64,000 nt of DNA, from NCBI GenBank assembly GCA_046314355.1, contig JBKBWQ010000001.1, positions 288,001 to 352,000 on the forward strand, read 5' to 3'. A program made the translations under genes and the position numbers. Position 1 is the stretch's first letter. Every line of letters starts with the position of its first letter. Shown here one piece after another: positions 21,427 through 49,107 of this stretch. The notes under the pieces are model-generated. The model ran no database searches. It worked only from the letters and a program-made list of their open reading frames with translations, and was not told where the DNA came from. Origin of the DNA: Candidatus Altimarinota bacterium. GTDB lineage: Bacteria > Patescibacteriota > Gracilibacteria > 1-14-2-50-48-13.

Positions 21427-22968
21427 ATGAAATACGCACTCCTTCTCACAAGTTTCTTCCTAGCTTTTTCTCTTCAGGCAAGCCCCATATTGGCTCAAGA
21501 TATCGCTCCTACAGTATCTACCATTGATCTGCAAAACAGCATATCGCCAATTATTACCGGGAAGTCAGAAATCGAGATTGGTAAGCGTCTCTATCTGGAT
21601 GCTGGAAGCTCCTCAGTACCACAGAATACACCACTACAGTATATATGGACGATTAATGATCAAAGTACACAGGAAGGTAAAGAGACCTTTTATACTTTTG
21701 ATACGCCAGGAGAATATACAATAAGTCTGACAATCAAGAGTGATACGGCATCGAAGACAGTTATGCGAAAAATATTTGTCTATAGAGAGATGGTCTCATT
21801 TCTATACAATGGTCCTCTTGCATCTTTTACGAGCAACATACAATCTGCTCAAGAACTAGCAAAAAATAATGGTATTTTTCTAAATCTCATTCAAGGAGAT
21901 GATGGTAGTCCTATCTTAACAGAAGATGCAGTCTACAGAGCACTTTCAGGAAAGCTTGATTCTGTTAAGAACTCACAAACGCTTATTGCAGGACCGTATC
22001 CTACAGATGTATTGCCAGCACTGAATAAGCTTGGATATGATCAGGATAGTGAAGGCACTCATGTGATAATACTTACAACAAATGAACCAATTTGGTTATT
22101 TAATAATGTTATTGCAAGGTTATCGCGTCTAGTAGATGCAAAAGAATTGATCCTTATTCAGCAGGACCCGTTTGCTGTACTGAACTTCTTTTTACAGAGT
22201 ACTGACATAGAGCATTTTAAACAAAAGTTGCCAGAAAAAGATTATGCAATTATCTCAAAAAATACTTCACCGGGAATGAGATGGGCCTTATTATCTCAGG
22301 GACTGAATAAGGCTATTGAAAATGGGATACCAGCATCAGTACTTTCATTTTTACTGATAGTTCCATTAATTCTTACATGGATTGCTTTTTTCAAACAGGT
22401 AATCGGTATTGAAACATTCGGTCTATTAAAAACACTTATCCTTGTACTTTCCTTCTATATTCTAGGAATTAAGTATGGGAGTTTCATACTACTCTACGTC
22501 ATTCTTATGGGAGTACTTATACGAATAGTACTTTCAAAATTCACGCTTTTTTATATACCAAAAGTAACACTAACACTTTCTTTTGCTACACTAGCCGTAC
22601 TTGGATTAATTATTATCGGCTCATACTTCAATCTTACATTCGGTATAGATACATCTAGCGGACAAAGAGCACTGCTCTCATTAGTACCTATGCTTTTGAT
22701 TGCTTTTCAGGCAGATACACTTTCGTATCATATCTTTACAAAGAATTCCAATTACAAAGAACTGCTGATTCTACTTGCTACATACTTTGAGGTGGTTATT
22801 GCCTTTGGAATAGCCAGGATAGATTATCTTAGATATATACTTTTTGCATTACCTGAACTTATTATTATCGTATTTATACTACAATTCCTTATCTCTCGCT
22901 ACACTGGATTAAGAGCGATAGAAGTATTCCGTTTCAGAGAACTTCTTTTACAAGATCTTGAAGAATAA
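21427..22968 (+). CDS. PKD domain + 7TM (7TM_transglut-type) membrane protein
   Basis: Signal peptide; PKD-like YIWTI..YTFDTPGEYTISLTI; C-terminal KQVIGIETFG...RYTGLRAIEVFRFRELL, typical of the 7TM domain paired with ATP-grasp ligases. Confidence 0.8.
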   Translation: MKYALLLTSFFLAFSLQASPILAQDIAPTVSTIDLQNSISPIITGKSEIEIGKRLYLDAGSSSVPQNTPLQYIWTINDQSTQEGKETFYTFDTPGEYTISLTIKSDTASKTVMRKIFVYREMVSFLYNGPLASFTSNIQSAQELAKNNGIFLNLIQGDDGSPILTEDAVYRALSGKLDSVKNSQTLIAGPYPTDVLPALNKLGYDQDSEGTHVIILTTNEPIWLFNNVIARLSRLVDAKELILIQQDPFAVLNFFLQSTDIEHFKQKLPEKDYAIISKNTSPGMRWALLSQGLNKAIENGIPASVLSFLLIVPLILTWIAFFKQVIGIETFGLLKTLILVLSFYILGIKYGSFILLYVILMGVLIRIVLSKFTLFYIPKVTLTLSFATLAVLGLIIIGSYFNLTFGIDTSSGQRALLSLVPMLLIAFQADTLSYHIFTKNSNYKELLILLATYFEVVIAFGIARIDYLRYILFALPELIIIVFILQFLISRYTGLRAIEVFRFRELLLQDLEE

Positions 22969-22971
22969 TCT

Positions 22972-25410
22972 ATGGCAAATTTTTCTGACATATTGGGTAT
23001 TAACGCTAGACATCTTCTTTTTATAAAAAAATATAATCCGGATGATGCTATTATATTTGCCGATAATAAACTTAAGACAAAGAGGTTTCTTGAAGCAAGA
23101 GGTGTCCCGGTACCAAAACTTGCAGGCACAATAAGGAATTTTACTGAGCTTGATAATTTTCCATTACCAACATTACCAGGACAAATAGTAATCAAGCCTA
23201 ATGCAAGTTCAGGAGGTCAGGGGATTATTGTACTTGGCGAAAAAAATTCTACAGGCTGGAAAAAAAGTAGCGGTGAAGATATTTCGCTGCAGGAGGTAAG
23301 AAGACATATTCATGATATCCTTTCTGGTGCGTATTCAAAAAATGGACAGAGCGATATCTGTCTTATTGAAAAGAGAATCATCAGTCATGAAAAGTTAGCG
23401 GCTATTTCCTATAAGGGACTTCCTGATATACGAATCATCGTATTCAATATGGTTCCTGTAATGGCTATGCTCCGTCTCCCTACAATTCTTTCCGACGGAA
23501 AGGCAAACATGCATCAGGGAGGTATTGGAGCAGGGATAGATATTGCGAAAGGAGAAATTACATACCTTTCACAATTTAATAAAATCATCGATGACATCCC
23601 AGGAATTGGTGATGTACGCGGATATAAGATTCCTTATTGGGATAAAATTCTCCAGATGGCGGTAAAAAGCCAGATGATTACCGGAGTGGGATACTTGGGT
23701 GTGGATATCGCACTTGATAGAAATGGACCTATGGTTCTTGAAATGAATGCGCGGGCAGGTCTAGGCATCCAGTTAGCTAATATGGCACCGCTTCGGAAAA
23801 GATTAAATATGGTTGAGAAACTTAAAGTAAAATCCATAGAAAAGGGAATCAGAATTGCAAAAGATCTTTTCGGAAGACAAATAGATCGTGATATTGAGCA
23901 GGTTTCAGGAAAAACAGTTATCGGAACGAGAGAAATAGTTACTCTTTATTTTAAGGAAGGACCAAAAGAAATACTTGGTAAAATTAACCCCTCAATCCAG
24001 GAAAATTATATTGATCGCCAGCTTTTTGAAGAGCTTATTGCAAAAAAACCCTATCTACAACAAGGTGATGACTCAATTCGGCTAAAATATAAACTCACTG
24101 ATGAGAAAACGAAAAGTATTTTTAAACCTTTAGATTTAGGAGATAAAAAGTATCAATTAATTTTGGGAAGAAAAGAACTTAAGAGCCTTTTGATAGACCC
24201 GTATAAATATAAGTTCAATGAGATTCCATATAAACCCGCATTAAATTTATTATTACCTGAAAAAACAGAGGAAGCTGAGCGTAACGCACTTATCAAAAAA
24301 TGGTTTGAAGTAGATCAGTCGCTTGCACGTATTGAAAGAAATTTACAGGTAAAATTTTCTCTTTTTCCACTCAATTATCAAACTGAGATGGAAAAATTCA
24401 TCGAATGTGAGGGACAATATAATCCATTTTTCATCTATAAAAATGACCCCGAAAGCTACGAACATATAAAAAATGATCTTGATGCAGTACATATTAATAC
24501 TCAGGAGTTTCAGGGACATATCTTTGCAGCAAAGAAGAACGAACTATTTACAAAACTTGAAATGTTTCACTGTATGGCAAAGGATGCTCATGAATTTACC
24601 AGATTATCTGAGGAACTCTATATCACATGTGATCCTGTTCTTTTTGAAGCGGCAGAAGCAGAAATTGTACGGAAAAAAGAAACTTTAGGATTTTTGATCC
24701 CGAAAGAGGAAACTTATGGATTAGAAGAAATTAAAAATGAGATTACTGCACTTTTTAAAAAATATAAACTTACTAAATGGAATATAAAAGTTCGTAATCA
24801 CGCTAGTTCACGTATAAGCGTAAGCAAATCAAAAAAACGCATTCTCTATCTAGCATCTGATATAGAAATAGAAAAACACCTCCTCCCACAAGTACTTGCA
24901 CATGAAGTAGAAACGCATGTACTACGTCTGGAAAATGCTCTTCAACAGCCATATGAGATATTTAGAACAGGTTTTGCAAACTATCTTGAAACAGAAGAAG
25001 GACTTGCTATCTATAACCAAGCATGCAAAAGCGACGTGGTATCACTAAAGGATTTCACGGCAGCAATCAATTATGTAAAAACATATAATATTCTGAATAA
25101 AAGTTTTGAAGAAGCTGCACATGGATATCTGCAGTCAAGAAATAAGGCGGAACTACTCAATTATGAAATGTATCAGAGTATATTTAAAAGTATTTTAAGA
25201 GTGAAGAGAGGACTTGGAGATACATCGCATCATGGTGGATATGCAAAAGATCTTGTATACTTTGCTGGATATAGAAAAATTGTGGACTTCGTTGAGTCAG
25301 GAGGAAATATAAAAAATTTGTATTTTGGAAAAATATCTCTACAATCTCTAGATGATGTTACCTTCATGCAGGAGCTCAAAGAACCGAAAATATTACCTGA
25401 TTTCTATTAA
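22972..25410 (+). CDS. Fusion: ATPgrasp_ST (alpha-L-glutamate ligase-like) + inactive RimK-associated aspartyl protease + DUF1704 metallopeptidase
   Basis: LGINAR, DNKLKTK, IKPNASSGGQGI, GLPDIRII, GKANMHQGG, LEMNARAGLGIQLAN; VIGTREIV..GKINPS..ILGRKEL..IDP; HEVETH..TEEGLA..RVKRG..KDLVYFAG. Confidence 0.85.
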   Translation: MANFSDILGINARHLLFIKKYNPDDAIIFADNKLKTKRFLEARGVPVPKLAGTIRNFTELDNFPLPTLPGQIVIKPNASSGGQGIIVLGEKNSTGWKKSSGEDISLQEVRRHIHDILSGAYSKNGQSDICLIEKRIISHEKLAAISYKGLPDIRIIVFNMVPVMAMLRLPTILSDGKANMHQGGIGAGIDIAKGEITYLSQFNKIIDDIPGIGDVRGYKIPYWDKILQMAVKSQMITGVGYLGVDIALDRNGPMVLEMNARAGLGIQLANMAPLRKRLNMVEKLKVKSIEKGIRIAKDLFGRQIDRDIEQVSGKTVIGTREIVTLYFKEGPKEILGKINPSIQENYIDRQLFEELIAKKPYLQQGDDSIRLKYKLTDEKTKSIFKPLDLGDKKYQLILGRKELKSLLIDPYKYKFNEIPYKPALNLLLPEKTEEAERNALIKKWFEVDQSLARIERNLQVKFSLFPLNYQTEMEKFIECEGQYNPFFIYKNDPESYEHIKNDLDAVHINTQEFQGHIFAAKKNELFTKLEMFHCMAKDAHEFTRLSEELYITCDPVLFEAAEAEIVRKKETLGFLIPKEETYGLEEIKNEITALFKKYKLTKWNIKVRNHASSRISVSKSKKRILYLASDIEIEKHLLPQVLAHEVETHVLRLENALQQPYEIFRTGFANYLETEEGLAIYNQACKSDVVSLKDFTAAINYVKTYNILNKSFEEAAHGYLQSRNKAELLNYEMYQSIFKSILRVKRGLGDTSHHGGYAKDLVYFAGYRKIVDFVESGGNIKNLYFGKISLQSLDDVTFMQELKEPKILPDFY

Positions 25411-25418
25411 CTATTCCT

Positions 25419-26081
25419 ATGATCATTTTCGATAATGTTACAAAAAAATTTGGGAGTAGAGCAATACTAGATTCTTTCAGTCTTCAGATCCAGGCCGCAG
25501 AGTTTGTTGCTATAATGGGACACTCTGGAGCAGGTAAATCTACAATGATCAATCTGCTGATAGGTCATCAGCGTCCCACAAGTGGTCAAATAATGATTGA
25601 CGGGGTACATATTGAAAACATGGATTTTAATATGCGACAGCTTTACCGCCGAAAGATTGGTATTGTCTTTCAGGATTATAAACTCTTACCAAAAAAGACA
25701 GTGTATGAGAATGTATCCTTTGCTATGGAAGTATGCGGAAATACTGATGAGGAAATACAAAAGAGAGTACCTGAAATACTCCACCAGGTTGGTCTTCTAG
25801 CAAGACAAGAACAGTATCCTGATGAACTCTCAGGTGGTGAACAGCAAAGATGTGCTATAGCTCGTGCATTAGTACATAATCCAAATCTTTTAATTGCAGA
25901 TGAGCCGACAGGAAATCTTGATCAGGAAACAGCAAAAGATATTATTAAGCTTTTGAGTGATATTAACAAAAACGGCACAACTATCATTATGACTACACAT
26001 AATCCAAAGCTTCTAGAGAACCTTACGTATAGACTTGTAGAACTGCATGAGGGGAAGCTGAAAGAATCAACGCATCATTAA
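25419..26081 (+). CDS. ftsE: Cell-division ABC ATPase
   Basis: GHSGAGKST, RRKIGIVFQDYKLLP, LSGGEQQR, ADEPTGNLD. Confidence 0.88.
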   Translation: MIIFDNVTKKFGSRAILDSFSLQIQAAEFVAIMGHSGAGKSTMINLLIGHQRPTSGQIMIDGVHIENMDFNMRQLYRRKIGIVFQDYKLLPKKTVYENVSFAMEVCGNTDEEIQKRVPEILHQVGLLARQEQYPDELSGGEQQRCAIARALVHNPNLLIADEPTGNLDQETAKDIIKLLSDINKNGTTIIMTTHNPKLLENLTYRLVELHEGKLKESTHH

Positions 26082-27412
26082 TACTCCGAAATACTATTTA
26101 TAAACTGTAGTACTTTCGTGTGATTTGGATTAGTATAATCGTATTTCCCAATAGTTAAGTCAGGGAAGGGAAAATGGTTATGATAGTATTCTTCGTAATA
26201 ACTCCATGTAGAGATATTGCCCAGAGTATAAATCATATCTTTAGTAAAACAAAACCCTTCGGAAAGCCCTGAAGTACCTCTAAAGGTTCTTGTGGTTCTT
26301 GTCCAGGCAAGATCTACTGCTGTTTGCTTTGCAGTTTCAAGAGCAACACCATGAAGTAGTTCAAAATAGAAATAGAAATCATAGGAAAAATTAAAAATCT
26401 CTCGAAAATTTCTTTTTTTTCCAACCATTCCTTTTGTAAAAGCGATTGAAAGGTATCTATCAATTCCAAATAATAGAGCACAGTCTTCATTAAAAACCTG
26501 TTCCCATACTGTAGTAGGTCCTTCAGATACTTTTTCAAAATTGGCGAATCCTTTACCTAAAAGCATTATTCTCGAATTCAGTCCTTTAATTGCCTGCTGA
26601 ACATGGTATCCAAGTTCATGAATAAGCAATTCCGAAAGCCGGTGAAAATCTACAGTTTTCGTAGTAGGAATCACTACCTCTTTAAGGTTATGGTCTACTG
26701 CAATACTATCAAGACTTTTCTCACGCAGTACGATTGAGTAGAGATTTTTTGTATCTATAAGAGATCTATACTCTTCAAATACGGCAGCAATCTCTTCTGC
26801 AGTGAATATATCTTTCTCCTTATATTTTTGAAGAATATTTAATGCATCCTGAAATTGTGTGTAACAATTATTTTTTGTCCAAAGCATACACTCTTGGGAC
26901 GGAAGGAAAGGATTTTGTTCTTTTCCGCTTTTTTCTAAATATTGTAATAATTTTTCAGAACCATGATTTGCCTCTTTCTTAGATATGAATTCATTTAAAT
27001 TGTCCATCAGGTGCATGGTAGTTTCTCTTTCAGGAGCTCCATAGAGCTTTTCCGACAAGATCTGTACTTTTTCTTCATTGCCTTCGGAGACGGCATTTAA
27101 AAAACTTATTATGATCTGTTGTTCTTCTATTTTATTACAATATATTTCTTTTATTATTGAATGATATGACGATTCTTCAATGGATTTGCTAAAATCTGTA
27201 AGTTTTAATGCTGTTTTTGATAAATGCTCTTTATCAATAAATGGGTAAAGAAAAGTAGGATTTTCAATCTTTCCAGCCAGAAACAGTTGTTTCTGATTTT
27301 TCCAGTAGTCTGCATCACTTTCTAAAAGTGACAGAATACGAATATCTGCAACTTCTTTTTGAAATCGCAGAAATAGTTCATGATCAAGAGCAGTGACATT
27401 TTTACTAGGCAT
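26078..27412 (-). CDS. DUF1704 (MATCAP-like) metallopeptidase, paralog B
   Basis: HELGYH, SEG, RTFRGT, FTKDMIY, GKYD. Confidence 0.8.
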   Translation of the reverse strand: MPSKNVTALDHELFLRFQKEVADIRILSLLESDADYWKNQKQLFLAGKIENPTFLYPFIDKEHLSKTALKLTDFSKSIEESSYHSIIKEIYCNKIEEQQIIISFLNAVSEGNEEKVQILSEKLYGAPERETTMHLMDNLNEFISKKEANHGSEKLLQYLEKSGKEQNPFLPSQECMLWTKNNCYTQFQDALNILQKYKEKDIFTAEEIAAVFEEYRSLIDTKNLYSIVLREKSLDSIAVDHNLKEVVIPTTKTVDFHRLSELLIHELGYHVQQAIKGLNSRIMLLGKGFANFEKVSEGPTTVWEQVFNEDCALLFGIDRYLSIAFTKGMVGKKRNFREIFNFSYDFYFYFELLHGVALETAKQTAVDLAWTRTTRTFRGTSGLSEGFCFTKDMIYTLGNISTWSYYEEYYHNHFPFPDLTIGKYDYTNPNHTKVLQFINSISEY

Positions 27413-27480
27413 TCATCTATGGTTATACTTACTATGATTTAAGATAGCCTGATATGTGTAACAGTCAAGAATACGAAAAA

Positions 27481-27507
27481 AAAGGAGATATTTGAAATAT
27501 CTCCTTT
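27481..27507 (-). terminator. Intrinsic terminator
   Basis: AAAGGAGATATT-TGA-AATATCTCCTTT with a flanking A-run. Confidence 0.75.
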
Positions 27508-27521
27508 AATACTTTTTTTAT

Positions 27522-28895
27522 TTATTCTTCTTCTTCACCGTCACAGTCTGCAAAAAAATCATATTTTGCTTTTGGTACAATATTTGTAATCTCATTTATT
27601 ACTTTCATATGATCCATGTTTGTTGGGTCATATTTACCTATAAATAGATTAGGTAAATCCTGACCTAATTCATACATTTTGGTCATATATTGCCATATAC
27701 GGATGTTTCCATCCCTATAGCAAATATCCTTTGTAAATGCATTACCTGCGGAACAGTCAGTTCCACGAAACGTACGTATACATCTGTTCCACGCATCATT
27801 ATTAGCTTTCTCTTCTGATTCAGAAAGTGATTTACCTTTCTTAGTTGCTTCATACTGATATAAAGTTTTCAGAATGTTAAACACCTGTCTAAAATCTCTT
27901 TCAACGCCATCTAATCCTAAAGCAGCGCCGATGGAAAGATAAGCTTCGGGACGACCGAAGTCTTTCACTTTTCCATCATAACTCTGTTCCCAGACAGTGG
28001 TGAGGCCTTCTTCACCTTGAAGATAACCACTTAATCCTAAACCAAGTAATTTAAGGTTAGAACCTTCACCATTTTCACGACGTTGGACATGAGTACCAAT
28101 CTCATGACCAATGAGTTTTTCTAATTTTTCCCCAGTTACCTCACGGCTAGCAGGAATATTAACTGTCTTTTTTTCCTGTGATACTGATATTGCAGTTTTA
28201 CTGCTTTCAGTAATCTCAATTTTAAACTCACCGCTAGCACCAACATTGTTAAGAGCTTTTTCAAAAAATTCCTTTATCTCAGGAGCGTTATACTTAGATT
28301 TAGAATCAATTATAATGCCATGAAACAAACTTTTAAACTGTTTCATGAATTGCTCTTTCGTCCAAGCCACAACTTCTTTAGATGGAAGGGAAATATTAAA
28401 TGCATGATTCCCTGCCTGTGGTAAAATCTCAAGCAGTTTTTTAGCTGCAATTCCGATATCTCCATCTACGGAGATATTTGCTTCTGCATCCTTTCTTATT
28501 TCAGATAAAGTGTAGAAGTAAATATCAGTATCCGGTATACCGTTTACATCTGCATTAAATGCTTCAAATAAATTCATATCTCCATCTAGTACGGCATCCA
28601 GCAAAGAAAGTTCATTGAGTTTTTCGATAATCTTTACTGTGTAAGCTTCTCTGTATACTTCAGGTAAATCTGAAGTATCAATTGCTTTCAGTGCATTAGC
28701 TTTAGATTCAATATTCTCTCGTGTAATTAATGGATAATCCAATCTAGGATTTTCAATTTTATAAGAGAGAAATAAAGCTTTCTGTTCATCTCTATAGGCC
28801 TTATCACCATCTAAAGATTCGTAAGCTTCAAATGAACCTGCCGAAGCAAAACTTGCATAAATAGCTAAATCAACAGCTGAATTATTTTGTACCAT
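27522..28895 (-). CDS. DUF1704 (MATCAP-like) metallopeptidase, paralog A
   Basis: HEIGTH, GEEGL, RTFRGT, FTKDICY, GKYDP; strong AGGAGGT SD. Confidence 0.85.
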   Translation of the reverse strand: MVQNNSAVDLAIYASFASAGSFEAYESLDGDKAYRDEQKALFLSYKIENPRLDYPLITRENIESKANALKAIDTSDLPEVYREAYTVKIIEKLNELSLLDAVLDGDMNLFEAFNADVNGIPDTDIYFYTLSEIRKDAEANISVDGDIGIAAKKLLEILPQAGNHAFNISLPSKEVVAWTKEQFMKQFKSLFHGIIIDSKSKYNAPEIKEFFEKALNNVGASGEFKIEITESSKTAISVSQEKKTVNIPASREVTGEKLEKLIGHEIGTHVQRRENGEGSNLKLLGLGLSGYLQGEEGLTTVWEQSYDGKVKDFGRPEAYLSIGAALGLDGVERDFRQVFNILKTLYQYEATKKGKSLSESEEKANNDAWNRCIRTFRGTDCSAGNAFTKDICYRDGNIRIWQYMTKMYELGQDLPNLFIGKYDPTNMDHMKVINEITNIVPKAKYDFFADCDGEEEE

Positions 28896-28980
28896 TGTGG
28901 TACCTCCTAGTTTTTAAATATCAATAACAACAAGCAATTTATACAATATATTTTAATAAAGTCAATATTACTATTACAAT

Positions 28981-29014
28981 AAAAAAGAGTACCTCCTAAG
29001 AAGTACTCTTTTTT
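28981..29014. terminator. Bidirectional terminator
   Basis: AAAAAAGAGTAC...GTACTCTTTTTT. Confidence 0.75.
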
Positions 29015-29021
29015 ATATCTA

Positions 29022-29288
29022 TTATTCAGCTTTTGCCTTAGTAGCTTTCTCAGCCTTTACTTCTTTAGTAATCTTAAACTCTTCCTTCATTTTTGCAGTA
29101 TTGAAACCATACTTCTGCATTCGAAGCTCAATCTTTGCTACTGCATTGCTAAGCCATTTAGTATGACCTTCTTTCTGGATTCTTTCTCCAAGTTTCTTAA
29201 GAATTTTTACACTAGCATCCATTTTAGAAGTATTGCTAGGACCTTTCTTATTTACCTTATAAATTTGGCGGGCTTTACCTGATTGCAC
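29022..29288 (-). CDS. Small basic protein with a K/E/A-rich tail (88 aa)
   Basis: Promoter TTGCGC-17bp-TATAGT (29366-29338) overlaps the tracked start, which favours GTG at 29288; terminator follows the stop. Confidence 0.65.
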   Translation of the reverse strand: MQSGKARQIYKVNKKGPSNTSKMDASVKILKKLGERIQKEGHTKWLSNAVAKIELRMQKYGFNTAKMKEEFKITKEVKAEKATKAKAE

Positions 29289-29426
29289 GGTGTCGTTCAG
29301 TGAAAATATAAAAATTCGTCGGAACAAATGTGAGGAAACTATACTAAAAGAAACAGCTAAGCGCAAGAGAATTTGAGTAGAATACTTATAATTATCTAAA
29401 GAAATGATAAGTATTAGTAAGGGAAT

Positions 29427-30455
29427 CTAGAAGTTGAATTTATTTTTAAGAATTACGTCAACGGTACTATCGTTTACGCTTTCAATAGGAGTCTGGATCC
29501 CTGGAGTGGCGTTTAATTCAATAATCTTAATTTCATTTATAGATTTACAGTTCTTTAAATCAGCATGAAGTACATCAATTCCGACAATCTCCAATCCCAT
29601 ACGTATTGCCAGATCTTCAAATACTTTAGCGATCTTAGGATCAATTTTATCTGTAATTATTTTTTCCGTTCCGCCTACAGAATTATTACATTTATAAGAA
29701 AGAAATATTTTTTTTCCTTTAGGCAAAATACTCTCGCGAGTAACTCCTTGCTCTGAGAGAAGAATATCTAACTCTTCGGTCAGAAGAACTTTATTATAAA
29801 ATTCAGTATACAAAACAGCCCCTCTATTTGGGTCATCATTGAGCGTTTCTATTAATTCATTGATGGTTTTCTTCCCATCACCTATAACATAAGGCTTAAT
29901 TCTATGGGTGACCCAGTGACATTTCCCAAACAGAATAAAGAATCTGTAGTCTTCTCCTTCAATAAATTCCTGAATAAGAAAATTTTTTTTATTTCTTGTA
30001 AAACTCACGGCATCTGCGATAAATAATCTTAATACCTCTAAGGTCTGTGTATTATTCCATACATGGACTCCGTTCCCGTGGGCACTATCTACGGGTTTGA
30101 TAACTATCGTCGTTGGTGATGCTGCAATAATCTGTTCGACTTCATCGAGTGAATCGATACTATAGATATTACTCTGAATTGTAGGGTATTTCCAATGATT
30201 AAGTACCTGATAGGTAAGTAACTTATCATTGCATATTTTACTCATTGAGGACGAATTATCCAAACTACATCCTTTAAATATAACTTCTTTTCCATCCTTA
30301 GAGAGAATATAAGTACTTTTTTTCTCGTCAATCATCTGAAGAGTATATCCTGTCGCCTGCGCTCTTTTAATAATAGTGGCTGGGCTGATCGTCAAATAGT
30401 TCATATTCATCTTGTATTCAAAATAATTAATTGAGTGAATCAAATCAAGATTCAT
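29427..30455 (-). CDS. Stand-alone ATP-grasp ligase, cyanophycin synthetase/GshAB-like
   Basis: CNDKLLT, VIKPVDSAHGNGV, QEFIEGEDYR, YVIGDGKKTINELI, NNSVGG, GIDVL, IIELNATPG; true start may be MNMNYL. Confidence 0.85.
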   Translation of the reverse strand: MNLDLIHSINYFEYKMNMNYLTISPATIIKRAQATGYTLQMIDEKKSTYILSKDGKEVIFKGCSLDNSSSMSKICNDKLLTYQVLNHWKYPTIQSNIYSIDSLDEVEQIIAASPTTIVIKPVDSAHGNGVHVWNNTQTLEVLRLFIADAVSFTRNKKNFLIQEFIEGEDYRFFILFGKCHWVTHRIKPYVIGDGKKTINELIETLNDDPNRGAVLYTEFYNKVLLTEELDILLSEQGVTRESILPKGKKIFLSYKCNNSVGGTEKIITDKIDPKIAKVFEDLAIRMGLEIVGIDVLHADLKNCKSINEIKIIELNATPGIQTPIESVNDSTVDVILKNKFNF

Positions 30456-30634: not shown

Positions 30635-30711
30635 TGGTACCCACGACAGGATTCGAACCTGTGACCTTTGCCTTAGAAGGGCACTGCTCTATCCAGCTGA
30701 GCTACGTGGGC
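30635..30711 (-). tRNA. tRNA-Arg(UCU)
   Basis: GCCCACGTAGCTCAGCTGGATAGAGCA...CTTCTAA loop...GGTTCGAATCC...ACCA; 77 nt with encoded CCA. Confidence 0.96.
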
Positions 30712-35382: not shown

Positions 35383-36225
35383 ATGCCGGATAAACCAGAG
35401 TTAGATATGCATTTTCTTTCCACTTTGGAGAAAATACTTCTAGATCTCAAAGCTAATTATAGTGCAGAGGATATTCCTTCTCTTGAGAAACGCGTCTTGG
35501 AAGAGGCAAAAAAGAATTCTGCAAATCTTGATATAAATAAGCAGATTGAGCTCTTAGCTGTTGTACATGAGCTTTGGCATGCCTTTAAATTCGCTGCAGA
35601 AAAACATAAGAATCAAGCAAGAGAGTCTGGTGAGCCATATATTATGCATCCTATTCTTGTAGCACTTAACGAAATATATCACCAAAAGCATGAAAGGGGA
35701 CACTATGCTGAATCTCCCATTATTGCAGCACTGCTGCATGATACGATAGAAGATACTGATGCGCAGTACGAGGATCTTGATGCTCACTTTGGAAATAGAG
35801 TGAAGCAGCTTGTAGCGAACCTGACAAATAAGCCTGAGTGGGATGAATGGAAGAAAAAAGGACAGCTGTCTCATACTGAAAAGTCCGCTTTACAGTTTAT
35901 TAATGCAATAAAAGATCCTGCATCCCTTTCTGTGAAATTTGATGACCGCACACATAATCTGGATACGATCAGATATATGCCTGCGGAAAAGCAGATAAAA
36001 AAGATACTAGACACTCTCTCAGTGGGATTTATAGAAAAAGCAGAATCACTAGGAAGATTTGATTTTCTCATACAGCTCTACATTACGATCCAGCAGTACC
36101 TTACAGATGTAAATATAGAACAGTTTGCTGAGAACTCCGAAGATGCTAAGCAGCTTAAACAGCAATCACTCACTCAGATCAGCGATATTCTCTCAAGACA
36201 TCATCAGGAGATTTTCCATAGATAA
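35383..36225 (+). CDS. Stand-alone RelA/SpoT-type HD hydrolase (small alarmone hydrolase-like)
   Basis: HKNQARESGEPYIMHP, AALLHDTIEDT, KFDDRTHNL. Confidence 0.85.
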   Translation: MPDKPELDMHFLSTLEKILLDLKANYSAEDIPSLEKRVLEEAKKNSANLDINKQIELLAVVHELWHAFKFAAEKHKNQARESGEPYIMHPILVALNEIYHQKHERGHYAESPIIAALLHDTIEDTDAQYEDLDAHFGNRVKQLVANLTNKPEWDEWKKKGQLSHTEKSALQFINAIKDPASLSVKFDDRTHNLDTIRYMPAEKQIKKILDTLSVGFIEKAESLGRFDFLIQLYITIQQYLTDVNIEQFAENSEDAKQLKQQSLTQISDILSRHHQEIFHR

Positions 36226-43230: not shown

Positions 43231-46200
43231 TTACTTATTTGGGAACTCATACATCATAAGCGCAATCTTTGAAAGCTCTGCTCGTGTTGCAAAATGCTCT
43301 CCGTGGAAAAGTCCGTCGTTCTTACCGCTGACAATTCCTCGTTTGAAAGAATATGCTACATATCGTGAGAACCAATCTGTTTCTCGTACATCCTGGAAGA
43401 ATGTATAATCATCAGAATCTGAAGACTGTATTACCTGCTCCTGATCAATCTTTGCCTGAAGTACACCGCTTGTTCCTCTAAGGATAATTTTGAGTGCTTC
43501 AGCTCTATTGACTGGCTGATTTGGTCTAAAGAATCCATCATCATAACCATTGATAATTCCAAGTGCCTTTGCCTGTGCAATGTAACCAGCATACCACTCA
43601 TTTCCACGGATATCAGGGAAAGCTTTACTTGCATCGATTCCAGCTACAGCTTTTCCATTAAGTCTCATTACAAGCTTCACAAGCTCGGCTCGAGTCATAT
43701 TCACATCTGGTCTGAATAATGATCCTGTAACTCCTGACACTACACCTCTCGATGCAAGTGTACAGATTACATCCTTTGCCCAATGGAACTGAATGTCTGT
43801 AAAGGCAGAACATGTTCCTTGAGGCTGCTGCGGAATACTTGTTCCTGGAGTATTATGTGTGTCAAAGAATCCGATTACTCCTGATTTCTTAATATAAGTA
43901 TCAAATCTCTTTCCCTTGAAATCGCTGTATCCTCCAATCTTTGTCCAAGTCTTTGTAGCAGGATCATAGAACATGATCGCAAGATTCTCTGGCTGTGAAA
44001 CATCTCTAGTAATATCTCTTGAAAGATCTCCGTATACCCGAAGCATTGGTGAGAATGTTTGAGTAAGGTCACCGTACTGGATAAAACAATCATAGAGCTG
44101 AGTATACCCGTTTGGAATACTTGTCTTTGCTGTTTCAGGAAGTCTGCTCGCTGTGTAGCAAGACGGAGTATAGATAGTTCCTGTAAATCGTGATCCGTCC
44201 GGATTCGTCACAATAGTTCCTTTATCATACTGAATGCTGATTCCATTTCCTGCATCCATATGCTTGATCGGTACAGTTGCAACACCGTTTGAAAGATCAA
44301 ATTTGAGTGGTCCGTAAACTGTAAGGAAAGATCCATTATCAGTCGCTGGGATGGTAGTCGGAGTAGTTGTATCTACCTGACTTCCTCCTCCACCACCACC
44401 TCCGCTGCTTCCACCACCGCCTCCTCCGCCACCACCTGTGGATGAGTTAGAAGTATTTATTGTAAACGCCTTAGCAGGGATAGTAATTGTAGCATTATTA
44501 GATGTTACAACTGCTTCTGCTGTATAGTTTCCAGATGGAACGAGTTGTCCATTATTATCAGTTCTGTTCCATGTAATACTTGCAAGCTGTACGCTACCAT
44601 TTCCTGGAACTACGATTGATGTCTGTCCCTGAGTAAAGTTCTGTCCTCTACTAGACTGCCATACAATCTGACCTGCACTGTTTTTGATGATCACATCAAA
44701 CATCTGGCTAGTAGGGAATGTAAGAGTCTGATTTGTACTTGTAGGGTTGAACACTACGACCTGTACATTTACATTTTCAGTTCGTGCAAAGTTTACACTA
44801 TCAGCACCTGTAACTGTACTCTTGAGAAGCAAATTACCTGTAAGTCCAAGAGTAGTCGTTGTACCTCCTGTATTTATAAAGAATGAGAAAGGTCCGTTTG
44901 CAGCAAAAGTTGGAAGTGATCCATCAGTTGCCCGTACTGTCCAATAATATCTCGTGTTATTTGTTCCAGTGAATGAATATGAATTCGTAGTAAGATTAGT
45001 AGCTACCGGAGTAGTACCAGTCAAGTTTGCAGCAGATGTTGCTACGTATACGTTGTAATTCAAAGTATTTCCATTTGGATCCTGTCCAGCCCATGTGAGG
45101 GTAGTAGTAGTTGTACTTACATTTGAGTTATCAGATGGAGATACAAGGTTTACTGTAGGAGCAAGATTTGGATTATTATTGCTAGCGACAATGCTGAATG
45201 CAGTTGTTGCAGCAGTAGGGAAGATGTTTGATCCAGTAGGATTAATATCTCCGCTGAGAATATAGTTACCAAGTGCTACCTGACTTCCATTTGTTCCAGC
45301 TTGATTCCATGTATAATTGTAAGTCTTTACTTCACCTGGATTGAAAGTCACTGACTGATTTCCAGATGTAGATGGAGAGATAAACACCTGCTGATTATTT
45401 GCATCCATTACTCTAAAGAGAGCTCGTGAAGCATCGTTGATAGTTGCTGTCTGAGTATTCTGCGTAAGATTTCGTACCTGAAGCTCAAATACCATGTTCT
45501 GTCCCTGTATAAATACAGTTCGAGGATTATTTGTAGCTCCGTCTCTTGTGATAAGAGTATATTCAAAGTTTGCATTTGCACTAGGATTCTGAGTCGCAGT
45601 CTGAGTCGTAAATGTAAATGTACCATTTAGTGACTGACCTGTAAGTCCCTGAGGATCTCTAGCTACTACTCTCCAATAGTACCGTGTACCATTTGCAAGA
45701 CCAGTTGCCTGATAGTTCGTTGCAGATGTTCCCTGAGTTACAAGAGTTGTAGGGTTTGAATTAGTATCAAAATATACATCGTATAAGAGTGCATCTCCAT
45801 TTGGATCAAATCCAAACCAAGTAAGAGTCACATTTCCACCATTTACAACAGTATTATTCGATGGAGTAAGAAGAGTAACTACAGGTGCATAATTTACCTG
45901 AGACTGAGTAGTTGATACAAGGAACTGCATCTGAGGTGCTGTAGGAAGATTGCTGTTTGTTGCGCGAATCTGTGCAGTCGCAGTATAAAGTCCGTCTACA
46001 AGTGTAGGAGTACCAGATGGTGTATCAGCTGTAAATGTTCTGACCTCTCCTGGTGCGAGTACAATACTAGTATTAGTAGTACTATCTGCATGAGCTACAA
46101 AGCTCTGCGTTCCAGTTGAAGTATTTACATTGAATCGAACCTCATCTCCATTATCCGGGAATGTTAGTGTCTGAGGCTGTGTGCTGATATTTGCTACCTG

Positions 46201-48798
46201 CATCACAAACCGTATACTTTCATTAGCTGCAAAGACTGTCTTTGCTCGTCCATTAGTAGTAGATGCTGTATAAGCTGTAAATCTGAATGTGTCATTCTGA
46301 GTAACTACTGGAGTTACAGGAGGATTTGTAGTTCCATTCGTGATATTTACACTAAATGAGTTTGGTCCGTTCGTTGCAGTTGCAGTCTGTCCGTTGGAGT
46401 TTCGTGCAATGACATTCCAGTAGTAAGTACCGTTTGTAAGTGTAGGAGAAGTAACCTGAGTACCTGTAACACCTGACATATAAAGTACAGGTGAACTAGT
46501 AGTTCCAAAGTATACATCGTAGCTTACTGCATTTGTACCATTCCAGCTAAGATTTACAGTATTTGTAGTTACTGGAGAAGTTACTGGGTTAAGAGTCACA
46601 GATGGAAGCGTAGTGCTTGTCCCTGTTACAAATGTGAAAGGTCCATTGATTGAAGATGTAAATCCATGAGATGCATCTCTTACCTGTACATTCCAGAAGT
46701 AAGGTACATTTGTACTAAGACCTGTAAGGTTGAAAGTAAGTGTTGTTGGATTTGCAGGATTTGAACTTGCTCCGTTTGGAGTAGTGTAGTTTACACAGTT
46801 CGTATTGATCGCTGCAAGTGATGTAGAATAACATACCTGGTATGTGAGCGCATCACTCTCATTGTCAGTACCTATCCATCGTACAGTTGCTGATGTTGCA
46901 GTTACATTTGTAGCATCCACAAGACGTGCGATTGGTGCCTGATTAGTTACTGTTCCTGTTGTTGTAAAGCTTGCGATCTGATCTGTAGAATACACCATGT
47001 ATGTACCGTCAGATACTCGCGCAGTCCAGTAATAAGTAGTACCAGGTGCGAGATTTGTAATTGTGTATGAACCTGTATTTGTAGTTGTGTATACACAGTT
47101 TGAAGCTGCATTATTTCGGTCTGTACTTATACAGATATCTACCGTAAGTGCATTTCCATCAGGATCAGTAGCACTGTAGTTTACAGTAGCTCCGTTCTGA
47201 GTTGGATTTGTAGCAGATCCGAGAGTGATACTTGGCATTCTATTTGTAGAATTATTTGCCATTGTAGTAAAGGAAAGAGGACCATTATCCGTGATTCCCT
47301 GTACTACCTGATCAGCAACTCGTACTGTCCAGTAATATGTCGTACCTGCAATAAGATTTGTAAGAGTTGTACTCTCATTAGATGTTGTTACAGAACAGTT
47401 ATTTGTGATATTTCCAGCAGTTGTTCCAAAACATACAGTGTATGTGAGAGGAGCATTTACATCTGCATCATATCCATTCCAGATAAGAGTAGCAGTTGTT
47501 GCCTGAATATTTCGTGACTCAAGAAGAGTTACATGTGGAGTATTGTTACCGTTGCTTGTACCAGTAGTTGTGAACGCAGCTGTATTAGAGTCTCGAGTTC
47601 CAACATTATTTGTAGCTTTTACAAACCATGTATACTGAGTATTTGCAAGAAGACCTGAAAGTGTAAAAGTTGTAGCATTTCCTGCATTTGTACAAGTGTA
47701 TGCTCCAGCAGTATTTGTTACCTTATAACATATCTGATATGAGATTGTAGTATTCTGAGTATCAGTTGCGCTGTAAGTTAATATAACACTTCCATCATTA
47801 TTTACAGAAGAGTTAAGTGCTCCAAAGTTTGGAAGAGAGTTACCTCCATTATTTGCATTATTAGTAGTGAAATACTGCACTGAGCTTGATGCGCTTCCAG
47901 TCGTATTTGTTCCACGTACCCACCACTGATATGTAGTAGCAGGAGTAAGACCGCTGATTCTATATGAAGCAGCATTTCCTACATTGATACATGTAGCAAT
48001 AGATGCATACTGTACCTGATAACATACTCTAAAGTCAGATGAGTTTGAGCTAGTCCAAGATACATCCGCAGCTGTAGAGTTTACTACAGTGGAAGAAAGA
48101 TTAGAGAAAAATGGAAGATCTCCGTTATTCACAGTACATCCATTTGAATTTCCGTTTGTTCCATAGATTGAGCAAGTACCATTCGTATTTCCGTTCGTTC
48201 CGTAGATTGATCCATTTACATTGTTGTTTGTACCATAGATGGAACCATTAGAGTTTCCATTAGTACCGTAAATAGATCCGTTTACGTTATTATTTGTACC
48301 ATATATTGATCCAGTATAGTTTTCATTTGTTCCATAGATATTTCCGGAAGTATTTGAGTTAGTCCCGTAAATAGATCCATTGCTAGAAGAAGTAGTGTTC
48401 GTTCCATAAATAGAACCATTAGAAGTACTACTTCCATTAGTACCATAAATAGAACTAGTACTAGACGTAGTATTTGTTCCATAGATTGATCCATTGCTGG
48501 AAGAACCTGTATTAGTTCCATAGATAGAACCATTAGAAGTACTACTTCCGTTGGTACCATAGATAGAGCTCGTACTTGAAGTACTATTAGTTCCGTAAAT
48601 AGAACCATTAGAAGAGCTGCCTGAGTTAGTTCCGTAAATACTAGAACTAGAGTTTGTACCATAGATAGAACTGCTGGAAGTTGAAGAACCAGAATTTGTA
48701 CCATAGATACTTTGCGCCGCAACTATTTCAACCTGAGCTACCTGCGTAAACGCAAATGCTGCAAGGATGAAAGCTGTAAAGATTTTTTTCATAATCAT
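43231..48798 (-). CDS. Large surface protein: IYGTN repeats, multiple FN3 domains, BsuPI-like Ig domains, Gly linker, C-terminal SLH domains
   Basis: Signal peptide MIMKKIF; LxPxTTYxWxV FN3 units; TLTFPTSQMFD..VWQSSRGQNFTQ BsuPI-like; FTDIQFHWA and FRPNQPVNRAE SLH motifs; promoter at 48974-48947 excludes the tracked 48951 start. Confidence 0.88.
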   Translation of the reverse strand: MIMKKIFTAFILAAFAFTQVAQVEIVAAQSIYGTNSGSSTSSSSIYGTNSSSSIYGTNSGSSSNGSIYGTNSTSSTSSIYGTNGSSTSNGSIYGTNTGSSSNGSIYGTNTTSSTSSIYGTNGSSTSNGSIYGTNTTSSSNGSIYGTNSNTSGNIYGTNENYTGSIYGTNNNVNGSIYGTNGNSNGSIYGTNNNVNGSIYGTNGNTNGTCSIYGTNGNSNGCTVNNGDLPFFSNLSSTVVNSTAADVSWTSSNSSDFRVCYQVQYASIATCINVGNAASYRISGLTPATTYQWWVRGTNTTGSASSSVQYFTTNNANNGGNSLPNFGALNSSVNNDGSVILTYSATDTQNTTISYQICYKVTNTAGAYTCTNAGNATTFTLSGLLANTQYTWFVKATNNVGTRDSNTAAFTTTGTSNGNNTPHVTLLESRNIQATTATLIWNGYDADVNAPLTYTVCFGTTAGNITNNCSVTTSNESTTLTNLIAGTTYYWTVRVADQVVQGITDNGPLSFTTMANNSTNRMPSITLGSATNPTQNGATVNYSATDPDGNALTVDICISTDRNNAASNCVYTTTNTGSYTITNLAPGTTYYWTARVSDGTYMVYSTDQIASFTTTGTVTNQAPIARLVDATNVTATSATVRWIGTDNESDALTYQVCYSTSLAAINTNCVNYTTPNGASSNPANPTTLTFNLTGLSTNVPYFWNVQVRDASHGFTSSINGPFTFVTGTSTTLPSVTLNPVTSPVTTNTVNLSWNGTNAVSYDVYFGTTSSPVLYMSGVTGTQVTSPTLTNGTYYWNVIARNSNGQTATATNGPNSFSVNITNGTTNPPVTPVVTQNDTFRFTAYTASTTNGRAKTVFAANESIRFVMQVANISTQPQTLTFPDNGDEVRFNVNTSTGTQSFVAHADSTTNTSIVLAPGEVRTFTADTPSGTPTLVDGLYTATAQIRATNSNLPTAPQMQFLVSTTQSQVNYAPVVTLLTPSNNTVVNGGNVTLTWFGFDPNGDALLYDVYFDTNSNPTTLVTQGTSATNYQATGLANGTRYYWRVVARDPQGLTGQSLNGTFTFTTQTATQNPSANANFEYTLITRDGATNNPRTVFIQGQNMVFELQVRNLTQNTQTATINDASRALFRVMDANNQQVFISPSTSGNQSVTFNPGEVKTYNYTWNQAGTNGSQVALGNYILSGDINPTGSNIFPTAATTAFSIVASNNNPNLAPTVNLVSPSDNSNVSTTTTTLTWAGQDPNGNTLNYNVYVATSAANLTGTTPVATNLTTNSYSFTGTNNTRYYWTVRATDGSLPTFAANGPFSFFINTGGTTTTLGLTGNLLLKSTVTGADSVNFARTENVNVQVVVFNPTSTNQTLTFPTSQMFDVIIKNSAGQIVWQSSRGQNFTQGQTSIVVPGNGSVQLASITWNRTDNNGQLVPSGNYTAEAVVTSNNATITIPAKAFTINTSNSSTGGGGGGGGGSSGGGGGGGSQVDTTTPTTIPATDNGSFLTVYGPLKFDLSNGVATVPIKHMDAGNGISIQYDKGTIVTNPDGSRFTGTIYTPSCYTASRLPETAKTSIPNGYTQLYDCFIQYGDLTQTFSPMLRVYGDLSRDITRDVSQPENLAIMFYDPATKTWTKIGGYSDFKGKRFDTYIKKSGVIGFFDTHNTPGTSIPQQPQGTCSAFTDIQFHWAKDVICTLASRGVVSGVTGSLFRPDVNMTRAELVKLVMRLNGKAVAGIDASKAFPDIRGNEWYAGYIAQAKALGIINGYDDGFFRPNQPVNRAEALKIILRGTSGVLQAKIDQEQVIQSSDSDDYTFFQDVRETDWFSRYVAYSFKRGIVSGKNDGLFHGEHFATRAELSKIALMMYEFPNK
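48145..48712 (-). repeat. 16 tandem (S/N)IYGTN peptide repeats
   Basis: Counted in the translation; S/T/N/G-rich spacers. Confidence 0.95.
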
Positions 48799-49107
48799 TT
48801 GATAATTTAAATGATAGTAAACTGGAAATATATGTATAAGTATCGAAACAGAAAGGGAATACAACAAAAAGAAAATACCGTTTCGTATTCTCTTTTGTTT
48901 TTGTTTGATATTTTGCTCAGTCCCTTTTGAAAGGTTCTGATACACTATCATATGTAAACTTTACTAAATGTCAAGTTATTTTATATATACTATTTATTCT
49001 AACTCACAATTTAGTAACTAAGTATGTATCTCTATAATAGAAGACGACTCAACTAAGGAAAAAGTTACATAAAATTTATTCCCAGAAAAGAGAAACTTTT
49101 TTAACAA

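Follow-up and report, generated by a model that had tools for sequence, protein, structure and literature searches.

The described systems nearest to the subject of this study, a cluster of ligase and peptidase genes on 64 kb of Patescibacteria DNA, are RimK-RimB and RloABC. RimK glutamylates RpsF and makes poly-alpha-L-glutamate; RimB, a retropepsin, removes glutamate and stimulates RimK, and a RimB-RimK hybrid exists (PMC11957791). The rlo operon of Pseudomonas aeruginosa encodes RloA, a secreted retropepsin, RloB, an inactive-transglutaminase protein with a seven-transmembrane (7TM) part, and RloC, an ATP-grasp protein; deletion of rloB or rloC suppresses the triple protease mutant rloA1-3, the substrate channel of RloA is positively charged, and the Rlo substrate is given as not known (PMC12239564). 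The rlo mutants fail under hypo-osmotic conditions, and their cell shape, ampicillin tolerance and biofilm are defective (PMC12239564). Elsewhere, mutation of an inactive-transglutaminase-7TM gene leads to an excess of membrane vesicles (PMC12096838), and in Photobacterium damselae at low salt the genes for a QEGLA protein (27.5-fold), for an ATP-grasp protein with the next locus tag (38-fold) and for RimK (52-fold) are among the most induced (PMC10308900). In eukaryotes, the MATCAP/TMCP peptidases, which carry HExxxH and EEG motifs, remove the C-terminal Tyr or Glu of tubulin and shorten polyglutamate; prokaryotic homologues are not discussed in that paper (PMC10499314). Our subject is the span 21427-30455 of a stretch of 64,000 nucleotides (hereafter the window) from Candidatus Altimarinota bacterium (assembly GCA_046314355.1, contig JBKBWQ010000001.1, positions 288,001 to 352,000 of the forward strand). 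The locus, whose domains, catalytic motifs, fusions, gene linkage and lost retropepsin Asp are directly visible, represents a variant, from Patescibacteria, of the RimK-RimB / RloABC type; to judge by the sequences, a MATCAP-like zinc carboxypeptidase has probably taken over in it from the retropepsin, which is now fused to the ligase and apparently inactivated. Iyer et al. (2009) reportedly treated these ATP-grasp neighbourhoods and may already describe this one.

The three-domain enzyme and its membrane partner

The core of the locus is a polypeptide of 812 amino acids (aa) in which an earlier note on this DNA, made from the letters alone, had recognized a fusion of ATP-grasp and DUF1704; both domains are present, but a third, retropepsin-like domain hidden between them had been missed. 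Pfam identifies ATPgrasp_ST (2.6e-67) and MATCAP/PF08014, the DUF1704 family (1.9e-24; 86.8 bits against a cutoff of 27), and NCBIfam the models TIGR02291, “alpha-L-glutamate ligase-like” (3.9e-82), and TIGR02421, QEGLA (1e-28). LysX and RimK-family models match the ligase domain weakly, and the RimK model TIGR00768 has a cutoff of 143.4 bits that neither the fusion (43.6 bits) nor the second, stand-alone ligase of the locus (40.1 bits) reaches. An ATP-binding Lys with a Gly-rich loop and a Mg-binding E-x-N are the defining motifs of active enzymes of the ATP-grasp superfamily. The fusion retains them as VIKP..SSGGQG and E-x-N, within VIKPNASSGGQG (residue 73) and LEMNARAG (residue 256), with K75 and E257 invariant and N259 nearly invariant in alignment A3; the second ligase, of 342 aa, retains VIKP..HGNG and E-L-N, within VIKPVDSAHGNG and IELNATPG, so that both window ligases are predicted to be active. 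Neither of them matches the TTL family (PF03133) at E<=0.01, weak matches among the ligases of the related loci described below being confined to L025 and L056, and a phmmer search of the PDB with the ATP-grasp domain of the fusion returned nothing at E<=1e-3.

Residues ~313-410 of the 812-aa protein, a linker in appearance, form a degenerate retropepsin-like domain. The same region of unfused ATPgrasp_ST proteins matches PF05618 (L021, L022, L025 and L032; 33.3-42.5 bits against a cutoff of 27) or Asp_protease_2 (L051); the middle region of the window fusion itself gives no PF05618 match. In alignment A5, the catalytic motif is D-T-G in L017, L021, L022, L025, L032, L051 and four free retropepsins and N-T-x in L053, L054, L056, L058, L059 and L062, and the second retropepsin motif, “hhGRxxL”, is present throughout. 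The window domain retains “ILGRxxL” and has N-P-S (N339) in place of D-T/S-G, and it is therefore predicted to be non-catalytic. A search with the fusion gave 1297 matches at E<=1e-3 among the candidates scored, including at least 120 full-length fusions, and the 120 full-length matches listed (779-820 aa) all have both the ATPgrasp_ST and the MATCAP domain. Across these homologues and the window protein, the position of the catalytic Asp holds Asp in 62, Asn in 53 and another residue in 6, and just 24 of 121 still have the complete D-[TS]-G, whereas H-E-x-x-x-H and [QE]EG[LM]A of the MATCAP domain are found in 121 of 121. Thus the metallopeptidase is the conserved catalytic peptidase of the fused enzymes; their retropepsin domain appears, from its motifs, to have mostly turned non-catalytic. 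In the window, the MATCAP domain reads HEVETH (residue 644) and EEGLA (residue 675). The closest named relatives of the fusion among the matches listed bear a Gracilibacteria label (47% identity) or a Peregrinibacteria label (~40%), and the closest relatives, P0001-P0005, are 58-84% identical.

The membrane partner, a 513-aa protein, has Pfam matches to PKD_4 (7.1e-12) and 7TM_transglut (2.8e-16; 60.2 bits against a cutoff of 25). It runs from a signal-like N-terminus through a PKD domain and an alpha/beta juxtamembrane domain (residues 113-300) to 7TM_transglut (residues 304-489) and a short tail. The hydropathy profile has the signal-like segment and seven hydrophobic segments within residues 304-489, which, with the PKD part outside, would place the last 18 residues in the cytoplasm. 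The structure of the alpha/beta domain is similar to that of the juxtamembrane domain in Transglut_core+7TM proteins (Atlas template modelling [TM] score 0.72); Transglut_core itself has no Pfam match on the window protein, which has PKD instead, and the RloB model covers only residues 308-507, weakly (38.2 bits against 900). The Atlas cluster of PKD-7TM proteins is mostly Peregrinibacteriota. Together with the labels on the relatives of the fusion, and with genes that need no code other than the standard one, this places the organism within the Patescibacteria, probably close to the Peregrinibacteria. In the tail, the motif G-L-R-x-x-E-x-x-R-F is invariant in alignment A4, and the window protein ends in -QDLEE (22951-22965). 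Seven of 13 such C-termini are E, EE or EEE (window, L053, L054, L056, L058, L059 and L062), and those of L017, L019, L021, L022, L025 and L032 are K/R-rich or neutral; the seven acidic tails belong to exactly the seven proteins whose ligase has lost the retropepsin Asp, a pairing that we take as a lead and not as a result. As background, 11 of the 631 open reading frames (ORFs) of these loci end in EE, four of the 11 being these 7TM proteins, and the two of 51 window ORFs that do so are the 7TM protein and p2, one of two stand-alone DUF1704 peptidases (p1 and p2) encoded on the opposite strand.

The stand-alone peptidases and their relation to MATCAP

All three DUF1704 copies of the window exceed the PF08014 gathering score of 27 (fusion 86.8, p1 59.7 and p2 86.3 bits), and none reaches the NCBIfam equivalog cutoff of TIGR02421, 338.65 (100.7, 54.1 and 81.4 bits). 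The motifs HEIGTH..EEG and HELGYH..SEG, which the earlier note had picked out, are indeed present: p2 has HEIGTH (residue 264) and EEGLT (residue 295), p1 has HELGYH (residue 265) and SEGPT (residue 296), and HExxxH and the Glu of the EEG motif are retained in all three copies, with H264, E265, H269, E296 and G297 invariant in alignment A1. A signal peptide was found on none of the three. The C-terminus of p2 is -GEEEE (27525-27539).

A tree of 72 DUF1704 domains separates a short-form clade of 18 rows from a long-form clade of 54 (Shimodaira-Hasegawa-like approximate likelihood ratio test [SH-aLRT] 97 for both). The window's fused domain belongs to the short-form clade, together with other fused copies and with copies from three-gene operons; an ST ligase is part of the same protein or directly precedes the gene in 10 of the 18, lies 2.25 kb off in one and is missing in seven. 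As for p1 and p2, they are sisters in the long-form clade (SH-aLRT 94), p1 being fast-evolving (branch 1.72 against 0.59) and having SEG in place of EEG. The three peptidases of the earlier note are thus one short-form, fused copy and two tandem long-form duplicates; on this tree they appear to be two kinds of enzyme plus a recent, divergent tandem duplicate, and different specificities are possible.

The proposed relation to MATCAP is supported at the level of sequence. MATCAP/TMCP structures in the PDB include 7z5g, 7z5h and 7z6s; a single-sequence search with p2 found human MATCAP (7z5g) at E=1.5e-5, and a profile of 19 long-form sequences found it at E=7.2e-10, with HEIGTH/HExxxH, EEG and an RxxRG stretch aligned; the eukaryotic family also removes polyglutamate (PMC10499314). 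The structural neighbours of the Atlas model of p2 (predicted TM score 0.86) are all PF08014 clusters (TM 0.82, 0.64 and 0.60) and include ATPgrasp_ST fusions (TM 0.64 over 345 residues). Another of these neighbours, a cluster of 74 members that are mostly Pseudomonadota, joins MATCAP/PF08014 to an N-formylglutamate-amidohydrolase-family domain (PF05013).

Linkage of ligases and peptidases in other genomes

A profile scan for long-form DUF1704, taking one genome per species, yielded 65 related loci, whose neighbouring genes were mapped by phmmer, by Pfam on 265 adjoining ORFs and by purpose-built ATP-grasp hidden Markov models (HMMs). An ATP-grasp ORF lies <=2.6 kb from the DUF1704 gene in 27 of the 62 loci read under translation table 11 and in none of the three read under table 25; the linkage that the earlier note had looked to in relatives is therefore present in 27 of 65 loci and missing from 38. 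The near zone (<=2.6 kb) contains 47 ATP-grasp ORFs, or 1.65 per 10 kb, against 2, 4 and 1 ORFs (0.09, 0.18 and 0.06 per 10 kb) at 2.6-5, 5-7.5 and 7.5-10.5 kb, a density 9 to 27 times that of the farther zones in a comparison that favors the near zone, the HMMs having been built from near-zone genes, although weak Ddl-like matches were still found far out. The clustering of ATP-grasp and DUF1704 genes is beyond chance. Moreover, in all 13 cases in which the DNA upstream of the ST ligase is present, its immediate upstream neighbour is a 7TM_transglut gene. The loci with both ATPgrasp_ST and 7TM genes are L017, L019, L021, L022, L025, L032, L051, L053, L054, L056, L058, L059 and L062. Given the fusion and the recurrent neighbourhood, ATP-grasp ligases and DUF1704 peptidases are functionally coupled, and to that extent the tagging system or polymer cycle proposed in the earlier note is partly supported, although it had overlooked the closest relatives, RimK-RimB and RloABC.

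Several arrangements recur. CphA-like ligases lie beside DUF1704 genes in L022, L024, L043, L047-L050, L056, L058 and L062. A retropepsin gene accompanies a RimK-type ligase in L002, L009, L031 and L040 and an ATP-grasp_4-type ligase in L015, and in L037 and L042 RimK occurs with no retropepsin. L017 and L019 repeat the convergent arrangement of the window, in which a 7TM-fusion operon faces a long-form DUF1704 gene. In L056 (511-6581) and L058 (7477-13641), three or four different ATP-grasp genes follow in a row after a 7TM/ligase/DUF1704 trio, which suggests the stepwise building of a short peptide.

Some features of these records deserve mention in their own right. L002, L009, L031 and L040 are titled Saccharibacteria and L015 Kaiserbacteria; L002 has a retropepsin-RimK hybrid gene, and L031 and L040 have a Mur-ligase-family gene in addition. 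Nine records (L001, L006, L021, L023, L027, L043, L056, L058 and L062) are titled Gammaproteobacteria, Pseudomonadales, Bdellovibrionales or Verrucomicrobiales, and since their DUF1704 genes fall inside Patescibacteria groups of the tree, these bin labels are probably wrong. The long-form DUF1704 gene of L012 (8607-11038) is split by a Mutator-family transposase gene. In L034, L038 and L046, table 11 breaks DUF1704 up, whereas table 25 (UGA = Gly) gives an unbroken gene. Such a code is in keeping with the title of L038 (Absconditabacterales) and at odds with those of L034 and L046 (Peribacteria).

Other genes of the locus and its surroundings

Eight genes lie in the span 21427-30455, three on the plus strand and the others on the minus strand, facing each other (Table 1). 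Every gene that the earlier note named there is present; its list had left out an FtsE-like ATP-binding cassette (ABC) ATPase inside the span.

Table 1. Features of the locus, with genes called under table 11 and coordinates of the 64-kb window, and segments of related loci in the coordinates of those loci
Feature	Coordinates	Strand	Basis or remark
Membrane partner, 513 aa	21427..22968	+	Pfam PKD_4, 7TM_transglut
Three-domain enzyme, 812 aa	22972..25410	+	ATPgrasp_ST, MATCAP/PF08014
Enzyme domain 1, RloC/RimK-related ATP-grasp ligase	22972..23841	+	Pfam 227.4 bits
Enzyme domain 2, retropepsin-like (RimB/RloA, PF05618 type)	23908..24198	+	Homologous regions, alignment A5
Enzyme domain 3, short-form DUF1704/MATCAP-like zinc carboxypeptidase (predicted)	24313..25410	+	Pfam, NCBIfam, tree clade S
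FtsE-like ABC ATPase	25419..26081	+	TIGR02673
DUF1704 p1, 444 aa, long form	26078..27412	-	MATCAP 59.7 bits
DUF1704 p2, 457 aa, long form	27522..28895	-	MATCAP 86.3 bits
Small basic protein, 88 aa from GTG	29022..29288	-	Homologue alignment A2; original ORF 29022-29366
Stand-alone CphA-like ATP-grasp ligase, 342 aa	29427..30455	-	NCBIfam, PDB 7lg5
Long-form DUF1704 beside retropepsin and ligase, L002	7486-9790		
Long-form DUF1704 beside retropepsin and ligase, L009	8519-9875		
Long-form DUF1704 beside retropepsin and ligase, L015	11398-13165		
Long-form DUF1704 beside retropepsin and ligase, L031	7946-10650		
Long-form DUF1704 beside retropepsin and ligase, L040	9346-12055		

The family searches envisaged earlier placed MATCAP/PF08014, ATPgrasp_ST and 7TM_transglut above their Pfam cutoffs; the CphA N-terminus, also named for searching, is absent from the 342-aa ligase, which matches the G-domain region only. 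This ligase aligns with positions 141-449 of the 862 of the cyanophycin synthetase model TIGR02068 (1.5e-51; 175.4 bits against 850), with the C-terminal half of GshAB (5.9e-43) and with residues 239-459 of PDB 7lg5, the G (ATP-grasp) domain (E=4.4e-30). It has neither an N domain nor a Mur-ligase-like M domain and, at 175 bits against 850, it cannot make cyanophycin.

The small ORF is a real gene, of a family without a name. Its homologues (14 clusters at E<=1e-3) align from the GTG at 29288, which gives a protein ending in -KAKAE; 4 of 15 family members end in KAE, some have Lys/Ala/Pro-rich tails, and no Pfam family matches. The earlier note had listed this K/E-rich gene among those of the locus. 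The family occurs in 0 of the 65 related DUF1704 loci, and we reject the gene as a conserved component, be it substrate or precursor.

Doubt also attaches to the FtsE-like ATPase (TIGR02673, 265.8 bits against a cutoff of 264.85) as a member of the system. Its gene starts 9 nt past the fusion gene and shares 4 nt with the stop end of the convergent p1 gene; among the window ORFs scanned, nothing matches FtsX at E<=1e-10, and the FtsE gene is not adjacent to the system in L017, L019 or six three-gene operons.

A 12-bp terminator-like hairpin with a T-run lies 3′ of p2 (27507-27481) and another terminator-like hairpin with a T-run, seen by eye, follows the stop codon of the small gene, so that the minus-strand genes probably form three transcripts and not one operon. 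The upstream flank is housekeeping (QueG, an M17 aminopeptidase and DnaB). Downstream are a tRNA gene (30638-30711, minus strand; Rfam 68.6 bits), situated between the CphA-like ligase gene and the ORF of a 550-aa protein of no family, and also a metallo-beta-lactamase-fold protein and a XerC-like recombinase. The gene scan of the window revealed no S6 gene near the locus, the Rfam scan of the window nothing beyond the one tRNA, and the promoter scan of the window 56 sites, about as many as shuffles (mean 48.3). The window also contains two RelA/SpoT-family genes, at 35383-36225 (280 aa) and 61169-63163 (664 aa), and a 1906-aa ORF at 43231-48951 without an NCBIfam match.

Discussion

The best reading of the locus is the reversible addition of acidic residues to a C-terminus, a picture in which the chemistry and its regulation, as well as the added amino acid and its acceptor, are inferred. 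More specifically, and with a confidence that stops just short of even, we favor a system in the cytoplasm, coupled to the membrane, by which an acidic peptide tail is extended and cut back. The ligase would activate a free C-terminal alpha-carboxyl as an acyl phosphate and add Glu (or Asp) singly, and the DUF1704 enzymes would take residues off the same end. The dead retropepsin domain might grip the acidic chain or stimulate the ligase, and the balance between ligase and peptidase, possibly set by the 7TM partner, would fix the length of the tail. The acceptor would be the end of a peptide or protein, the best candidate being the cytoplasmic tail of the 7TM partner, and the minus strand would contribute a second, CphA-like ligase and two long-form carboxypeptidases. 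Among acceptors, we rank a protein tail above a free chain and a free chain above an exported peptide. The reasons for putting the protein tail first are that both enzyme families are known to act on protein tails in cells, that the ligase is strictly paired with a membrane protein having a conserved cytoplasmic tail, and that a ligase fused to a hydrolase suits a two-way regulator better than a maker of bulk polymer.

A number of points weigh against this account. A ligase and a peptidase fused together and acting on one bond would be a futile cycle unless they are oppositely regulated. RloA is secreted in P. aeruginosa, which points to an exported product and not to a cytoplasmic tail, and the several ligases per cluster in some loci speak against ranking a protein tail first. 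The ligase domain of the fusion scores 275.8 bits with TIGR02291, under the cutoff of 314.2, and the 342-aa ligase falls far under the CphA cutoffs; with both below family cutoffs, specificity is not transferable from those families. Literature searches found no biochemistry of bacterial DUF1704 proteins and, for bacterial QEGLA/TIGR02421, gene listings with no tested function. The density comparison carries the near-zone bias noted above, and more than half of the DUF1704 loci (38 of 65) have no ATP-grasp neighbour. Lastly, two changes on the ligase tree suffice to produce the pairing of acidic 7TM tails with dead retropepsins, which is therefore without statistical weight, and the L017 and L019 fusions retain D-T-G, their 7TM tails ending in KHDKSA.

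The lowest levels of probability go to readings that deny the locus its unity or make it biosynthetic. That housekeeping peptidases and ligases merely happen to be adjacent, with no functional unit, could be argued from the 38 of 65 DUF1704 loci that have no ATP-grasp neighbour, the apparently separate transcripts of the minus-strand genes and the housekeeping surroundings. Fusion in at least 120 protein clusters, the 9- to 27-fold ATP-grasp density near DUF1704 and the 13 of 13 adjacency of 7TM and ligase genes stand against it; for the plus-strand pair it is already contradicted, and overall it is very improbable. In the LysW-LysX and PEARL pathways, chemistry proceeds on an amino acid attached to a carrier. 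By the same logic, an amino acid could here be put on the acidic C-terminus of a carrier, either the small K/E-rich protein or the 7TM tail, modified and then released by the carboxypeptidase, in line with the weak LysX and RimK-family matches of the ligase domain and with the KAE ends of 4 of 15 small-protein family members. Yet Pfam and NCBIfam scans of the locus reveal no modifying enzymes, the small-protein family is in 0 of 65 related loci, and a terminator-like hairpin separates the small gene from the peptidase genes, all of which leaves scaffold biosynthesis highly implausible.

Two readings with more in their favor place the product elsewhere than on a cytoplasmic protein tail. The ligases may polymerise free Glu or Asp into an osmotically inert peptide or a storage peptide resembling poly-alpha-Glu or the cyanophycin backbone, from which DUF1704 enzymes would free the monomers, buffering the glutamate pool of the cytoplasm, for example after a fall in osmolarity. 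RimK does make poly-alpha-L-glutamate, and RimB stimulates it (PMC11957791); rlo mutants fail in hypo-osmotic stress (PMC12239564), and QEGLA, ATP-grasp and RimK genes respond to low salt in Photobacterium damselae (PMC10308900). Moreover, the second ligase resembles the backbone-building CphA domain and the N-acetylglutaminylglutamine synthetase model, clusters hold up to four ATP-grasp genes (L056 and L058), and the 74-member Atlas cluster joins MATCAP to an N-formylglutamate-amidohydrolase-family domain. However, a fusion enzyme that both makes and hydrolyses the polymer would burn ATP for nothing, the strict 7TM pairing and the conserved cytoplasmic motif are left unexplained, and in cells MATCAP and RimK are known to work on protein tails (PMC10499314, PMC11957791), so that we consider such a polymer cycle rather unlikely. 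In an envelope peptide system of the kind proposed for Rlo, the peptide would be made in the cytoplasm and exported or presented by the 7TM protein, and the peptidases would process it or destroy what is not exported. RloA is secreted, loss of rloB or rloC rescues a protease-less mutant, and shape, ampicillin and biofilm are affected (PMC12239564), as is vesicle production in the inactive-transglutaminase-7TM mutant (PMC12096838); DUF1704 loci are also found with PBP1-type genes (L016, L022, L023 and L025), with Mur ligase (L031 and L040) and with glycosyltransferases and PIG-L and YdjC deacetylases, and an FtsE-like ATPase follows the fusion gene of the window. But the nearby envelope genes vary by lineage and FtsE is not conserved beside the system; and since none of the three DUF1704 copies has a signal peptide and one shares a polypeptide with an ATP-dependent enzyme, trimming should be cytoplasmic. 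We think this reading unlikely.

Returning to the reversible acidic tail, its most elaborate form would have one polypeptide act as Glu writer, as acidic-chain reader (through the dead retropepsin) and as MATCAP-like eraser, setting the tail length of its own 7TM partner, whose PKD and alpha/beta domains would sense the envelope or a host surface. This we regard as decidedly unlikely. If it were true, writer, reader and eraser would amount to a bacterial “tail code” and to a prokaryotic precursor of the tubulin cycle of TTL(L) and MATCAP, and the CphA-like ligase and the long-form DUF1704 enzymes would also edit that tail or a second one. On a more practical level, the fusion and linkage of DUF1704 with RimK-like ligases point to a concrete candidate substrate for assays, acidic C-terminal tails.

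Comparison with described systems

With CphA1 (7lg5 and other PDB entries), the 342-aa ligase shares the ATP-grasp (G) domain only; it has no N or M domain and is accompanied by no cyanophycinase. RloABC resembles the window in its 7TM_transglut gene adjoining an ATPgrasp_ST/TIGR02291-type ligase and in its retropepsin-kind domain. The exterior of the window 7TM protein, in contrast, is PKD plus alpha/beta, with no Transglut_core match and thus no inactive transglutaminase. Unlike the secreted, active RloA, the window retropepsin is fused to the ligase, cytoplasmic and without its Asp, and the window adds a fused MATCAP-like metallopeptidase, two further peptidases and a second ligase. RloABC matters for stress tolerance and biofilm in P. 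aeruginosa, and the Patescibacteria variants point to candidates, namely the 7TM tail and polyglutamate-like chains.

RimK-RimB(-RimA) likewise pairs an ATP-grasp ligase with a peptidase, RimK adds alpha-linked Glu to a protein C-terminus, and ligase-retropepsin hybrids occur. The window differs in having a 7TM partner, no S6 gene nearby and a ligase that scores 43.6 bits against 143.4, and where RimK-RimB has an aspartic endopeptidase, the predicted active peptidase of the window is a zinc carboxypeptidase. The tubulin cycle of MATCAP/TMCP1-2 and TTL/TTLL, in turn, pairs a PF08014 peptidase with an ATP-grasp amino-acid ligase as the window does, although the window is without tubulin, its ligases are not of the TTL family, and identity to MATCAP is low (E=1.5e-5 for a single sequence and 7.2e-10 for the profile). 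In the window, writer and eraser are united in one polypeptide, and, on the evidence of the locus, the tubulin-code eraser may descend from a bacterial family already paired with ATP-grasp writers.

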